Shown: positions 15,721-36,774, counted from the stretch's first letter. The stretch is 64,000 bases of DNA from Nitrospirota bacterium (GCA_011088105.1 JAALKI010000001.1:30353-94352), one strand, 5' to 3'. Numbers and translations are program-made. Notes: generated by a model from the letters alone, not told the origin.

Positions 15721-16104
15721 TTACGCAGAGCATTGAAAGGTTTTTTCAAGATCACTCTCTAAGGTGAGCACGATGACCCGTTCACCAATACGAGTGTCAA
15801 TGTCCGTAAAGAGCCCGGTGATGCCCATTCCGGTGATGTCGGTTATTTGACTACGAAGCTTTTCTCCACCTTGAGAAATTAAATTTTGACGCATGCGCTT
15901 CACCATTTCTACCTCTTCAGCACTCTTAGCCAGTTGCCGCTCAGCAGGAGTCAGCACACCCTTAAGCCGTACTAATACGAGATCGCGGATCACAAAAGCC
16001 TTGACATCCATAGGGCCTCGCCCCATAAACTCTTGTTCAAACTTAATCACGGTATTGCGAATAGCTGTTTCGACTTCGCCCTTGGTTTTTTCGTTTTTTG
16101 TCAT
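15721..16104 (-). CDS. DUF2294-family protein
   Basis: From the ATG at 16104: MTKNEKTKGEVETAIRNTVIKFEQEFMGRGPMDVKAFVIRDLVLVRLKGVLTPAERQLAK ... TDIDTRIGERVIVLTLE. This fits my memory of the DUF2294 family pattern. Confidence 0.7.
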   Translation of the reverse strand: MTKNEKTKGEVETAIRNTVIKFEQEFMGRGPMDVKAFVIRDLVLVRLKGVLTPAERQLAKSAEEVEMVKRMRQNLISQGGEKLRSQITDITGMGITGLFTDIDTRIGERVIVLTLESDLEKTFQCSA

Positions 16105-16246
16105 TGTTTGATGTCCTATAAGGTGAATTAGGACCATGACATGATACAAAAGAAAGGTGACAGCGCAAGACATCTTAGGTGGTCATTATTCGATTTATCA
16201 ATGCAATGATTATAATTGGTTCAAAATCGACTGAGTGAAAAAATAG

Positions 16247-19200
16247 ATGACGTTAATAACATCTCCTCCAGCAAGCCACGAACTTTCTTCGGCAGAACGA
16301 GAGCAACTGCGTCAGAAAATTTCCGAGGCCAGTGAACCCATTGCGCCCTTTTGGCCTATGAGAACGATGGTGGCGCAGAATCCTATTCATGAGTTGGAAT
16401 ATCTGCCCTTTGACCAGGCTGTTCGTAAAGGCAAACAGCTTCTTGGTGGAAATGGCTATCTTGCGAATGAAGAGTATCGTCAATTTTATCGAGATGGCCG
16501 CATTACTCCGGAAAGTCTTAAGCGAGCCTTTCAGAGGATTGGACCTCAACAAGAGAGTCAACCCACCATCAAAGTAGGAAATCACCAAATTACAGCCCTA
16601 GATGTCTGGCACTTGCACCTGTTGGTTGGGTTTGAAGAGCTCCAAACACCTTTGCTTGAGTGGGAGTTAAGTGATGTTGGATCAACGAAGCGGTTTCATC
16701 AGCATCTCTCGGAAGAATCCCAAAAACGAATCATTGAACGCACGATTCAAGAGTGCGAACATTGCCGTGAATATCCTGAAAAGGCCTATCTCGCGAACCT
16801 GTGGAAGAGCTTCCTCGAGGTTTTAAGGTTATCTGGCTCTCATTCTTCTTCGGCACCAACACTTGAACACTCCTATTCACAAATATCTGAGCCCATTTCC
16901 TTGCCAGCACAACGGACCATCAGCGATTGGGTAGATTGCTTGGCTGGAAGTGAGTTAGTCGACCAGGTCAATAATCAACTCATTAAATGGGTAGCCGCCT
17001 TTCTTGATGAAGGCTTAGCTGAATGGGAAATGCCTCAACGAAATGAAGGCTTTTACCAAGCATGGAGAAAACTGGCGCAGCAAGACTTTTCAGGTCAGCT
17101 CCTCGGCATCAAGAACTTTGCTCAGAGAGTTCGTACCCTTCCTGAAGATCCAGAAGACGCAATCGGCTTCAGCTTACTCCAACTCGGCGTCCTCCAAGAA
17201 CAATGGGAGAATTACCTTTCTCGGCAGCTATCACTATTACCAGGCTGGACAAGATACATTCGGTGGCTTGGAGAGCATCCTGCGTACCACGCTCAACACA
17301 GGCATCCCATTGACATCACCCAATATCTTGCCGTCCGTCTCTTCTATGAAGTGGAGTTAACCCAAGTCATATGCCAGCAAGAATGGGAAGTTGACGGAAC
17401 GGTTTCTGCGTTGGGTGCTTACTGGATCGACCGTCCCGAAGAATATCACAATCGAATAAGGAATCAGGCCCATTCAGCAAATCCTACCAAACAAGCCATA
17501 TGCCGCAACGCTTGGCGATTATTCCATTTGGCCCAATTTCTTGAATTGTCTCCAACAGAAGTTCATGACCTATCACATGCTGATGCCCAGACATTGTTGC
17601 ATTGGCTAGATGATTTTCCTTCTGACCAGCATAGTCCAGTATGGCTTGAGGCGTATGAAGATACGTTTCGAGAAAAGATACTAAGAAAAATCTCAGCGCA
17701 TCGCGGAACAGTGCCTGCCCTGGATTCACGTCCCCATGCACAACTTGTATTTTGTATTGACGTACGTTCCGAATCATTTCGCCGCCATATTGAAGCCCAA
17801 GGCCCTTATGAAACATTTGGGTTTGCCGGGTTTTTTGGGATTCCTATCAGTCATCAAGCATTTGATAGCCAAGAACGATCTTTCTTATGCCCGGTGTTAC
17901 TGACTCCTAACCACGCAGTAACAGAAACACCTCGATCTGGAGAAGGAAAAGCGTTAGAGAAATATTCATCGGTTACCCGTTGGCACCAACTAGGGCATCA
18001 TCTTTTTCACGACCTGAAGCACCATCCCATTGGATCGATGATGGTCATTGATGTGTTGGGTTTCTTTTTTAGTCTAGGGTTAGTGGGCAAAACCTTGTTC
18101 CAAAAAACATTTCGTGCAATGACTGCTATTATCCAGCGTTGGTTTACGCACAGAGTTCCAACCCAGATCTCAATTTCCACCCCATCTGACCCTCACAATC
18201 CCATGATCGGAGAGGTGAATACTGAAGGGATTCCTGAAGGGCTTTCGCAGGGCTTTTCTCTGACGGAACGGGCGACCTTTATCGAAAATGGATTGCGTGC
18301 CATGGGCCTCACCAACAATTACGCCCGATTAGTCTGTCTCTGCGGCCATGGCAGCGAGACCGACAACAATCCCTATTATGGTGCGCTGGATTGTGGGGCA
18401 TGTGGAGGAGCACCAGGGGACGCGAATGCCCGAGTCTTTGCCGCTATGGCGAACGACCCTGAAGTTCGTTGGATCCTCAAAGACAAAGGATTACCAATTC
18501 CAGACGATACGTGGTTCCTTCCAGGAAAACATAACACGACGACTGATCGGGTCGAGTTTTATGATTTAGAAGAACTGCCGGAAACGCATAAAGACGATTT
18601 GCGTGTGTTAAACAAAGATCTCGAAGACGCTGGTGCAAATCAGGCTCTCGAGCGGTGTCATCGCATCCCCAGTGCGCCAACTGGGATTTCGCCAGAACAG
18701 GCCTTTGCTCATGTAGACGAGCGCAGTTGCGATTGGGCCAATCCTCGACCAGAATGGGGCTTGGCTGGTAATGGCGCATTTCTCATTGGAAGACGGAAAC
18801 TCACCAAAGGATTGGATTTAGATGGTCGTGTCTTTTTGCATTCCTATGACCCTATCGCTGATCCCGATGGTGCTATCCTTGAAAAAATTATGACGGCACC
18901 ATTAATTGTTGGCGAGTGGATTAACACCGGGTATTATTTCTCCGCGGTTGATCCGTGGGCGTATGGCAGTGGGAGTAAGGTACTGCATAATGTGGTGGGT
19001 GGTGTCGGAATGATGTTGGGAAGCCAAAGCGATTTACAAATGGGCTTTCCTCTTCAAACAGTGAATAACGGGAACATTCACTATCACGAACCCATGCGGC
19101 TTCTAGCCATCATTGAACAAGTGCCGAACGTGATCTCGTCCATCATACAAAAGCATGCGATTCTTCAACAGTTGTTGCATAACCAATGGCTCAATCTTGT

Positions 19201-35109: not shown

Positions 35110-36615
35110 ATGGTCATATTAATGGATCATATGATTAGTTGGATGATTGCAGTGCCTTTTGTAGGCATTGTCGTCATGGCATTTATCCGTGATCAAGAAT
35201 GGATCCGACGCATTGCCTTTGGGTGCACGATGGTAGAGGTTGGACTCGCCATCATCCTGTGGAGAAATTTTGATTCCACACAACAAGGGATGCAATTTGT
35301 TGAGCGTGTGGAGTGGATGCCCACGTTCAATATTCAATATGCCGTTGGTGTCGATGGCATCAGTATCCTCTTAGTGCTCCTCACTGCGCTTCTGTGCCCA
35401 CTCTGTGTCCTCTGTTCTTGGGGTGCCATCACCACGCGAGTGCGAGCCTACATGTCGCTGATCTTGCTTGTTGAAGGTGCCATGATTGTCGTCTTTACCG
35501 CCTTAGATCTCTTTCTCTTCTTTATGTTGTGGGAACTCACCATGATTCCCATGTATTTCATGATTATTCTCTGGGGAGGGCCCAATCGTATCACCGCAGG
35601 GATTAAATTTGTCTTGTACAGTCTCACAGGAAGCTTACTGTTACTCGTAGGAATATTGGGTCTCTATCTCAACGGGGGACACACATACGACCTGTTAGTG
35701 CTAAGTGAACAAACTTATTCTGCTACAACACAGTTTTGGCTCTTCCTTGCGCTCTTTTTGGCGTTTGCCATTAAGATGCCCATGGTACCATTTCATACTT
35801 GGTTGCCTGATGCGCATTCCGAAGCCCCAACAGCTGGCAGTGTCATCCTCGCTGGCGTGCTCCTCAAAATGGGAGGCTATGGATTTTTGCGATTTTGTTT
35901 GCCGCTGTTCCCTGAAGCCTCAGCCCTGTTCGCTCCCTATATTTTGTGGCTATCTGTTTTGGCCATTGTGTACGGTGGCTACATGGCATTGGCACAGTCC
36001 GATCTCAAAAAGCTTGTCGCGTACTCGTCAGTCTCACATATGGGATTTGTCACACTTGGGATTTTTGTGTTTAACAGCCAGGGCATTCAAGGCGCCATTT
36101 TACAAATGTTTAATCACGGCATTACCACAGCCGCCTTATTCATATCCGTCGGACAATTGTACGACCGTACACACAGTCGAGCTATCAGCGACTACGGTGG
36201 CCTCCATAAGCCCATGCCTAAATTTGTTGCCTTGTTTTTCCTATTCTCCGTCGCGGCATTTGGCCTTCCGGGAACCTGTAACTTCATTGGTGAGTTTTTA
36301 GTCTTGGTCGGGACCTCCTATACAAGTTTTGCCATGGTCCTCCTTTCTATGGGCGGCATTGTGCTCGCAGCCGCCTATATGCTCTGGATGTTGCAAAAGG
36401 TAGCCTTGGGGGAACCTTCAACCAAAGCAGTTGAAATACTCCCTGACTTATCAAACCGGGAACTGGCAACGGTGATTCCATTAGCCATTCTTGTCCTGTG
36501 GATTGGATTGTATCCTGGCCCCTTAATGGAACTGATGGACACCAGTGTCACGACATTGATTGAAAAAATAGATATCTCGCAGACTCAACCCTCTTCACTC
36601 ACTATGATACAATAA
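35110..36615 (+). CDS. NuoM/MrpD-like antiporter subunit
   Basis: 501 aa with FMLWELTMIPMYFMI and FAIKMPMVPFHTWLPDAHSEAPTAGSVILAGVLLKMGGYG. SD TAGGAG lies 8 nt upstream. Confidence 0.85.
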   Translation: MVILMDHMISWMIAVPFVGIVVMAFIRDQEWIRRIAFGCTMVEVGLAIILWRNFDSTQQGMQFVERVEWMPTFNIQYAVGVDGISILLVLLTALLCPLCVLCSWGAITTRVRAYMSLILLVEGAMIVVFTALDLFLFFMLWELTMIPMYFMIILWGGPNRITAGIKFVLYSLTGSLLLLVGILGLYLNGGHTYDLLVLSEQTYSATTQFWLFLALFLAFAIKMPMVPFHTWLPDAHSEAPTAGSVILAGVLLKMGGYGFLRFCLPLFPEASALFAPYILWLSVLAIVYGGYMALAQSDLKKLVAYSSVSHMGFVTLGIFVFNSQGIQGAILQMFNHGITTAALFISVGQLYDRTHSRAISDYGGLHKPMPKFVALFFLFSVAAFGLPGTCNFIGEFLVLVGTSYTSFAMVLLSMGGIVLAAAYMLWMLQKVALGEPSTKAVEILPDLSNRELATVIPLAILVLWIGLYPGPLMELMDTSVTTLIEKIDISQTQPSSLTMIQ

Positions 36616-36684
36616 AGACAATGCTGCTACGCAACTAGACAAGTGCATGCTTCAATCCTCATTTCGCAAGAAAGGAGTATCCGG

Positions 36685-36774
36685 ATGGACCCATTTCTAC
36701 TACTAGCCTTACTAGCTGTTGTCATTGGCGTTATCGGGATTGTGATCCGGTTCAAAACAGGCAAGAAGCCTTAA
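36685..36774 (+). CDS. 29-aa single-TM peptide, hypothetical
   Basis: SD AAAGGAG (36671-36677) lies 7 nt before the ATG. Translation: MDPFLLLALLAVVIGVIGIVIRFKTGKKP. It lies 69 nt downstream of the last mrp-like gene. Confidence 0.35.
   Translation: MDPFLLLALLAVVIGVIGIVIRFKTGKKP

Follow-up and report, generated by a model that had tools for sequence, protein, structure and literature searches.

Why genes for vectorial CO2 hydration of the DAB kind should stand beside a cluster resembling the Mrp cation/proton antiporter is the question raised by a 21-kb region (15721-36774) in a 64,000-nucleotide stretch of DNA from a Nitrospirota bacterium (GCA_011088105.1 JAALKI010000001.1:30353-94352), the whole of which is here called the window. 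The original prediction read this region as one integrated supercluster for inorganic carbon (Ci) uptake and cation cycling. Its named parts are there: two copies of the carbonic-anhydrase-like subunit DabA, one DabB, an extra subunit, a PII-like regulator, a SulP transporter, a CBS protein and nine Mrp-like genes are all present, with family calls above the Pfam cut-offs and the extra subunit having no Pfam match of its own. A single conserved 21-kb supercluster, however, is ruled out by synteny across 45 Nitrospirales and Nitrospinota loci, collected in a scan anchored on the extra subunit (one genome per species, window proteins mapped by tblastn). Five close relatives (L001, L002, L005, L017 and L025, with extra subunits 73-76% identical) have neither DabA1 nor Mrp genes less than 10 kb from module 1, the gene group that holds this subunit, and the window layout recurs only in L004, which lacks SulP and CBS. 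The region is better described as a lineage-specific juxtaposition of two conserved DAB-type modules with accessory genes, and it is module 2, in which DabA1 is tied to the nine Mrp-like genes, that may hold the answer to the question.

Genes were called from a listing of open reading frames (ORFs) together with Pfam and NCBIfam scans, using the curated Pfam cut-offs. Module 2 comprises the following genes in the window.

16247-19273 (+): DabA1, carbonic-anhydrase-like DAB subunit, first gene of module 2 (PF10070, 888.7 bits)
28989-29483 (+): MrpE, first gene of the Mrp-like arm (PF01899, 108 bits)
29480-29746 (+): MrpF (PF04066)
29748-30047 (+): MrpG (PF03334; start refined to the ATG at 29748)
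30044-30574 (+): MbhD/MbhE-like protein, corresponding to the C-terminal domain of MrpA (PF13244 and PF20501; 4-bp overlap with MrpG)
30571-31023 (+): MrpB (PF04039)
31016-31393 (+): MrpC, NuoK-like (PF00420; start refined to the ATG at 31016)
31390-32856 (+): MrpD, antiporter-like subunit (PF00361, 187 bits)
32853-34970 (+): NuoL-like subunit, 705 aa (TIGR01974, 483 bits against a cut-off of 407)
35110-36615 (+): NuoM-like subunit, 501 aa, last gene of module 2 (TIGR01972, 620 bits)

The nine Mrp-like genes are co-directional (28989-36615, plus strand), and the overlaps of 4-8 bp between successive genes from MrpG through the NuoL-like gene suggest translational coupling over that span. Module 1 with the SulP and CBS genes (19300-28478, minus strand) is inverted between DabA1 and MrpE in the window. 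A different picture is obtained from DabA1 homologues in three genomes, namely two Nitrospirales chromosomes and Ca. Nitronauta litoralis: in all three, nine Mrp-like genes follow directly downstream on the same strand in the order MrpE-F-G-(MbhD/E)-B-C-D, a NuoL-like protein of 698-699 aa and a NuoM-like protein of 501-502 aa. On one of these chromosomes, OZ245007.1, the module 2 operon lies at 2.25 Mb and module 1 at 3.45 Mb, and in three Nitrospinota loci DabB, the extra subunit, DabA2, PII, DabA1, MrpE, F, G and onward all run on one strand. The reverse test was a metagenome scan anchored on MrpB, which returned 80 loci, 52 of them reaching far enough upstream of MrpE to be evaluated. Of these, 51 have a DabA1-type gene immediately ahead of MrpE and in the same orientation, the sole exception being L115, a low-coverage sediment contig. 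The median apparent gap between the two genes is about 149 nt; in nine loci the gap does not exceed 20 nt, and in two of the MrpB-anchored loci an insert of about 1.8-1.9 kb widens it. Among the 75 metagenome loci that contain the whole MrpB gene, 74 show MrpB identities of 84-92%; the remaining one, the divergent locus L122 at 68%, has the same layout.

The coupling of DAB to Mrp that had been predicted therefore stands in part, as linkage far beyond chance, with the conserved unit being DabA1 plus the nine Mrp-like genes and not the whole 21 kb. Module 2 is best read as this unit, forming a single 10-gene operon in relatives. According to the Desmarais preprint, DAB activity needs both DabA and DabB, and no DabB adjoins DabA1 in the window or in any sampled locus, whether among the 45 module 1 loci or the MrpB-anchored ones. 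The conservation of the DabA1-Mrp operon therefore points to the Mrp-like complex as the membrane partner of DabA1 rather than to mere ion recycling. On balance we lean towards module 2 encoding a multi-subunit DAB-type complex in which DabA1 uses the Mrp-like arm in this way. DabA1 would dock through a hydrophobic finger bearing Asp602 onto the NuoL-like subunit, which lacks the lysine of transmembrane helix (TM) 12, and cytoplasmic CO2 hydration would be coupled to movement of H+ or Na+ through a long arm of the Mrp/complex-I type, with an elongated lateral helix clamping that arm. The result would be a redox-independent multi-subunit DAB with a layout analogous to that of NDH-1MS, where CupA works with NdhF3 and NdhD3.

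The residues bearing on this mechanism were compared with solved structures. Both DabA proteins, 38% identical to each other, match PF10070 (DUF2309) near 880 bits, a large margin over the cut-off of 25, so that the predicted family assignment is secure. Both align to DabA2 of H. neapolitanus (PDB 9rd0_A), with C351, D353, H524 and C539 kept as FCIDVRSE, GHGS and LDCGAC. Across 120 clusters DabA1 shows 72-83% identity; it is intact and keeps its active-site motifs. Its hydrophobic finger stretch spans residues 595-613 (IGSMMVIDVLGFFFSLGLV), and the embedded Asp602 was recovered by pattern match in 83 of 120 homologues and was also present in the 5 inspected of the other 37. In the preprint describing DAB2 by electron cryomicroscopy (cryo-EM), DabA2 reaches into DabB2 with a finger-like transmembrane motif, whose Glu444 stands where NuoL has Lys399 and Asp400; in DabB2 itself, likeness to NuoL is confined to TM1-11, the TM5 Glu is gone and the lateral helix is short.

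The NuoL-like protein of module 2 finds its best solved match, over its full length, in cyanobacterial NdhF1 (6hum_F). In TM12 the NdhF1 motif SKDE aligns to G407-P408-Y409-E410, with no Lys, and this Lys is absent in all 37 orthologous NuoL-like loci, which read FSG[SPA]YE or a close variant. The gap thus left at the Lys/Asp site is the position taken by the finger Glu444 of DabA2 in the DAB2 structure. In the lateral helix, a 27-aa unit opening with WLWRxxD occurs three times in tandem, from residues 593, 620 and 647 (window 34614-34865, residues 588-671; units LRFANWLWRIIDMNIIDKSI..., LFAQWLWRVVDIKGIDRIV... and LSRWLWRVVDISWLEQKV...), and the triplication is kept in orthologues of both phyla (L046:17046-19142, L047:17038-19137, L048:17183-19279). 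Past the aligned part, the C-terminus is about 55 residues longer than that of NdhF1, which by our own estimate of about 1.5 Å per helical residue would amount to roughly 80 Å of extra helix. The protein also scores far under the MrpA equivalog cut-offs, for example 238 against 937 bits. MrpD keeps the TM5 Glu, TM7 Lys and TM12 Lys, and the NuoM-like subunit keeps the TM5 Glu, the TM7 and TM8 Lys and the TM12 Glu. Together, these features would fit a long membrane arm whose NuoL-like subunit accepts the DabA1 finger.

Several observations weigh against a complex of this kind. The proposed contact between DabA1 and the Mrp-like complex is deduced rather than observed; phmmer does not align the finger segment to Glu444 of 9rd0_A, and the equivalence of Asp602 and Glu444 is likewise an inference. 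Apart from TM12, the NuoL-like subunit resembles canonical full-length NuoL/NdhF and not DabB, its match to DabB2 covering residues 7-367 only (148 bits), and the same type of Mrp and NuoL/M cluster has been interpreted as an antiporter for salt and pH homeostasis (PMC7784846, PMC12342949). The gene arrangement is also less strict than the metagenome counts convey. DabA1 and MrpE are 9.7 kb apart in the window and about 7 kb apart in L004, with inverted genes between them, and about 2 kb separates them in the sponge-type Nitrospirales loci L009, L011 and L018 (all such loci with MrpE in range), a gap that is filled in L009 by a DegP-type (DegP/HtrA) protease gene. Co-transcription is therefore not obligatory. 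Even the spacer of about 140 nt found in most loci leaves room for a separate promoter.

That spacer (for example L053:5006-5155 and L090:8269-8421) is kept in length, and partly in sequence, in most loci of Nitrospinota type, with 68% column identity across 15 aligned examples, and could hold an internal promoter. A regulatory RNA was considered and rejected, as RNAalifold predicts no consensus pairs on the 15 spacers. The sponge-type loci show further peculiarities. In L009 (coordinates cited in the sponge-type set L006-L018: L009:1911-3443, L009:6931-7830) a LysR regulator gene stands between divergent DabA1 and DabB. In L010, where no Mrp genes were detected, the protease gene seen in L009 again lies downstream of DabA1, and the DabA1 frame is split into several ORFs (L010:4150-7969), which could reflect either a pseudogene or long-read indel errors.

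An explanation through ion recycling, which we regard as unlikely yet deserving of serious weight, takes the Mrp-like complex to be a free-standing Na+/H+ antiporter, co-regulated with DAB and SulP, that would re-export the Na+ or H+ entering with bicarbonate or CO2. DabA1 would not be bound to it, and would instead have the module 1 DabB, or a different NuoL paralogue, as its partner. No Mrp subunit family is missing, the charged channel residues of MrpD and the NuoM-like subunit are retained, and there is precedent for the idea: in Ca. Nitrospira alkalitolerans, Mrp has NuoL/NuoM-like genes downstream of mrpD and bicA nearby, and was proposed to recycle Na+ for SulP/BicA uptake (PMC7784846), while BicA-like SulP genes with NhaB are known from N. 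marina (PMC8115632). A SulP gene directly upstream of DabA1 in seven loci (L046, L048, L061, L078, L082, L083 and L088) fits as well, and both the spacer and the split arrangement in the window are compatible with separate transcription units. However, free-standing recycling leaves unexplained why DabA1 never has a DabB of its own when DabB is required for activity; in OZ245007.1 the only DabB seen is 1.2 Mb from DabA1. Nor does it account for linkage to DabA in 51 of 52 loci, whereas SulP accompanies the cluster in a minority only, or for the loss of the TM12 Lys in all 37 NuoL-like orthologues examined.

The favoured reading of a DabA1-Mrp complex can be set against module 1, which has the more familiar DAB composition. 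Its genes in the window are as follows.

24029-25723 (-): DabB, NuoL-like membrane subunit (PF00361 and PF00662; ATG at 25723 likely, a longer ORF reaches 25744)
22923-23999 (-): extra subunit, 358 aa, degenerate NuoM/MrpD-like membrane protein (own sequence without Pfam match)
19665-22916 (-): DabA2, carbonic-anhydrase-like subunit (PF10070, 878 bits)
19300-19635 (-): PII-like regulator, CPII type, at the end of module 1 (PF00543, 78 bits; ATG at 19635 likely, a longer ORF reaches 19683)

These four genes keep the same order on one strand in 37 of the 45 loci; the other eight end at contig ends and show nothing conflicting, and PII follows DabA2 in every locus long enough to show its position. 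Judged from this synteny, module 1 (minus strand, 25744 to 19300) is thus an operon in which DabB is followed by a degenerate NuoM-like subunit, DabA2 and a PII protein resembling CPII. Such company has been met before: a 2017 paper reported PII, NuoM and SulP around DUF2309 genes, with PII closing the DUF2309 operons at their 3' end (PMC5700660). DabB carries the traits of DabB2, its NuoL match being limited to residues 16-374 (compare TM1-11), its TM5 Glu being replaced by Gln (FWQF in place of GWEG) and its C-terminal helix being short, with the protein ending soon after a YVDLLY motif. DabA2 has its zinc-site motifs conserved and DabB as a partner one gene away, the extra subunit lying in between. 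We read module 1 as a DAB-type vectorial CO2 hydratase powered by a cation gradient and equipped with an additional, probably structural, antiporter-like subunit and a PII-type regulator.

The extra subunit has homologues, among the matches listed, only in Nitrospirales, Nitrospira and Nitrospinota, some of which carry the annotation partial NuoM or proton-conducting transporter subunit. An identical copy of the 358-aa protein has been deposited from a Nitrospirales metagenome-assembled genome, which bears out the prediction that the Ci and cation machinery belongs to a non-cyanobacterial autotroph. The window itself stems from such a genome, of marine origin and belonging to a nitrite oxidiser. 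PF00361 is matched by 7 of 12 diverse family members, at up to about 28 bits, and hhalign pairs residues 165-343 with residues 279-454 of the NuoM-like protein at 89% probability. The TM7 motif is reduced to PLPPFHLPF, and no charged residues align at the TM7 Lys and TM12 Glu/Lys positions. A profile search of the PDB gave no match at E <= 0.01. The AlphaFold2 (AF2) model is poor (predicted local distance difference test, pLDDT, 55), and the Foldseek result obtained with it is merely supportive given this low confidence: the best 50 matches are all antiporter-like subunits (best E = 1.7e-3), including ND4/NuoM, MrpD, NdhD3, ND2 and MbhH. Length and position are kept in all 45 loci, with 73 invariant columns at identities down to 44%. 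We conclude that the protein is a shortened, degenerate antiporter-like subunit, probably with a structural role rather than that of an ion channel.

The relationship between the two modules is variable in layout and consistent in occurrence. No more than 10 kb separates them in 13 of the 45 loci, in three arrangements: tandem, divergent (with the LysR gene between them in L009, the sole locus checked) and inverted insertion. In genomes of 2-4 Mb, we estimate that chance alone would bring them this close in fewer than 1% of cases, and the proximity therefore argues for shared function despite the fluid layout. The check on neighbourhood conservation called for by the original prediction thus gave a divided answer, modules 1 and 2 each being conserved and SulP and CBS not being conserved at this place in the 45 loci. 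The modules also differ in descent. DabB is 77-86% identical to other Nitrospirales and 66-76% to Nitrospinota, and DabA2 is 70-85% and 62-71% identical, respectively, both following taxonomy. The window DabA1 and Mrp genes, in contrast, are 75-91% identical to Nitrospinota versions (L035-L037 and L049-L128 compared), and DabA1 is only 58-68% identical to that of sponge-type Nitrospirales. Because DabA1 and Mrp are closer to Nitrospinota while module 1 tracks taxonomy, it is suggested that module 2 moved as a block between Nitrospirales and Nitrospinota.

Block transfer is also what would be expected if the Mrp and NuoL/M genes formed a homeostasis island serving Na+ and alkaline tolerance, with DabA1 hitch-hiking on the transferred segment and having no functional coupling to it, and the cluster has indeed been called characteristic of saline and alkaline Nitrospirales (PMC12342949). 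We consider such an island improbable, since hitch-hiking would not lead one to expect that tight spacing (20 nt or less) and same-strand order should persist in both phyla and at an MrpB identity of 68%, that modules 1 and 2 should have been brought together repeatedly and independently, in three arrangements, or that the TM12 Lys should have been lost. It is very improbable that the extra subunit and the second DabA are decaying duplicates, leaving the conventional DabA2/DabB pair as the sole working unit and the rest as debris, for while the extra subunit lacks the canonical charged residues and barely matches PF00361, and DabA1 appears fragmented in some sponge-type loci such as L010, the invariant columns and constant placement of the former and the intact, active-site-bearing sequences of the latter speak against decay.

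The accessory features of the region, which accompany the two modules in the window, are listed below.

15721-16173 (-): MpsC homologue, divergent from DabA1 (PF10057, 108.7 bits)
25995-27716 (-): SulP/STAS anion transporter (PF00916 and PF01740)
27800-27814 (-): weak sigma-54-like -24/-12 match (TGGAACGAATATTGC, one mismatch)
28065-28478 (-): stand-alone protein with a CBS pair (PF00571 twice, 98 bits)

The MpsC homologue was the one gene overlooked in the predicted gene list, which was otherwise correct in all that it named. MpsC and DabA1 form a divergent pair in the window, L004, L046, L061, L082 and L088, and MpsC homologues lie near module 1 in nine other loci; this recurrence beside DabA genes in Nitrospirales hints at a DAB-related, perhaps regulatory, role. 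The SulP protein was said to be of the type that includes BicA, and BicA (NF050096) is its best NCBIfam model, in agreement with the SulP plus STAS architecture. The score of 388 bits is nevertheless below the equivalog cut-off of 880, and the protein is to be classed on this score as a BicA-like SulP/STAS transporter and not as a BicA equivalog. Neither SulP/STAS nor the CBS protein has an orthologue at this place in any of the 45 related loci. The SulP gene found upstream of DabA1 in the seven loci named above is of a second type (545 aa, without STAS and about 25% identical to the window SulP); these are Nitrospirales-type loci (for example L046:7792-9429 and L048:8360-9997, with a 3-bp gap to DabA1 in L048), and this type is missing from the window. 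SulP probably adds bicarbonate or anion uptake, and MpsC, CBS and PII are probably regulatory.

The only PDB matches of the PII protein are 5D4L and 5D4N (E = 1e-32), listed there as P-II proteins. We take these two to be the carboxysome-associated, bicarbonate-responsive CPII, whose name and properties reportedly come from Wheatley and colleagues in 2016.

Control of SulP by sigma-54, the remaining regulatory claim, lacks statistical support and is weak. The sigma-54-like sequence (27814-27800, minus strand) is sensibly placed, about 85 nt upstream of the SulP ATG, and one-mismatch matches number four in the window against 5.5 expected by chance from shuffles, a frequency no better than chance. 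No gene for an enhancer-binding protein or sigma-54 activator is found in the cluster; the nearest, and the sole one in the window, is at 56735-59164, 29 kb away. A terminator-like hairpin lies just upstream of the match (27857-27839), and scans for sigma-70 promoters and terminators were at background level.

Little else in the window bears on the two modules. An ORF of 126 aa between CBS and MrpE (28649-29029, minus strand), which overlaps the MrpE start, has no family match even at E <= 10 and is probably spurious given its intergenic position. The genes flanking the cluster are housekeeping genes (SMC, ClpB), base composition of the window shows no anomaly, and Rfam and tRNA scans of it were empty. 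Elsewhere in the window, two divergent genes (50278-51891, minus strand, and 51962-54316, plus strand) both carry GlnE and GlnD_UR_UTase domains and could represent a split or duplicated glutamine-synthetase adenylyltransferase.

As to novelty, the claim that such a neighbourhood is undescribed has to be narrowed. The association of Mrp with NuoL/M and BicA and the logic of Na+ recycling have been published (PMC7784846), whereas the link between DabA and Mrp was not found in the literature searched. More broadly, no description was found of DabA, DUF2309 or PF10070 tied to Mrp, or of DAB in Nitrospina, a result that is provisional as the literature covered was mostly open. The DabA1-Mrp/NuoLM operon and the operon of DabB, extra subunit, DabA2 and PII may thus be regarded, provisionally, as DAB variants not found described.

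DAB systems are currently understood as two-protein machines of DabA and DabB, and whether their coupling ion is H+ or Na+ is debated. A more far-reaching version of the favoured reading can be put forward tentatively, as something possible that we would not yet call probable: DabA1 and the nine Mrp/NuoLM proteins would be one Mrp-scaffolded vectorial carbonic anhydrase of about ten subunits, driven by an ion gradient (perhaps Na+-coupled in seawater), a redox-free counterpart of NDH-1MS and a main route of Ci entry in Nitrospinota and marine Nitrospirales, its NuoL-like subunit having been adapted to receive the DabA1 finger and to clamp a long arm. If true, the DAB family would be extended to a multi-subunit form, and the Mrp, NDH-1MS and DAB lineages of the complex-I superfamily would be linked. 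The carriers are the main marine nitrite oxidisers, dominant in the dark ocean, which fix carbon by the reductive tricarboxylic acid (TCA) cycle, as is known for Nitrospira (PMC8115632); the only means of Ci supply considered for them in published genome analyses are SulP/BicA-like transporters and carbonic anhydrases. The extra nuoL and nuoM genes beside Mrp in saline Nitrospirales, so far read only as an adaptation to salt and pH, would then have to be reread.

Comparison with known systems places the two modules between several families. With DAB/MpsAB, represented by H. neapolitanus DAB2 (PDB 9rd0), both window DabA proteins share the family domain and the four zinc/active-site residues, and the window DabB shares the truncated NuoL likeness, the lost TM5 Glu and the short C-terminal helix of DabB2. 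Module 1 differs in placing a 358-aa degenerate antiporter-like subunit between DabB and DabA, where the three-gene DAB1 of H. neapolitanus has a small transmembrane protein, and in ending with a PII gene; DabA1 differs in being without DabB and operon-linked instead to nine Mrp/NuoLM genes. The closest solved structures to the PII protein belong to CPII, while the host is reported to use the reductive TCA cycle and the window holds no carboxysome genes.

The resemblance of module 2 to Mrp (CPA3) antiporters is close in content. The cluster had been called complete, and all Mrp subunit families do occur in it; MrpA, however, is not one fused protein here, the MbhD/E-like domain being separate (176-182 aa), and the NuoL-like subunit has a complex-I-type C-terminus, the triplicated lateral-helix unit and no TM12 Lys. 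The gene order, E-F-G-(D/E)-B-C-D, is Mbh-like, as in the Mrp-like module of Mbh/Mbx/MBS. The trailing NuoL/NuoM-like genes and the nearby BicA-like SulP match the group 3 Mrp with NuoL/NuoM cluster of Ca. N. alkalitolerans and lineage IV Nitrospirales, a cluster typical of saline and alkaline members in a study that also mentions the 2M complex (PMC12342949). In contrast to these published clusters, a DabA gene heads the operon here, a feature of which there was no mention in the literature searched.

Respiratory complex I (NDH-1) is a poorer fit, as the cluster contains no homologues of NuoA, H, B, C, D or I and no quinone (Q) module, and is flanked by CBS and ClpB. The '2M' complex I of Nitrospira, reportedly described by Chadwick and colleagues in 2018 with an elongated NuoL lateral helix, would be similar in that its lateral-helix extension would fit additional antiporter-like subunits. 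It is distinguished from module 2 by having one insertion where the window protein has two extra 27-aa units, and the window cluster is of the Mrp type, without nuoA-K or Q-module genes. The nearest parallel in layout is the cyanobacterial NDH-1MS (CupA/CupS, NdhF3, NdhD3 and the NDH-1M core), in which a soluble CO2-hydrating protein is likewise combined with NuoL- and NuoM-type ends of a complex-I-like arm. Module 2 departs from it in having neither a redox (Q or ferredoxin) module nor a CupA homologue, and in the base of its arm, which is of the Mrp/Mbh type (E, F, G, MbhD/E, B, C, D); with no redox module, the energy for CO2 hydration by a DabA1-Mrp complex would therefore have to come from an ion gradient and not from electron transfer.

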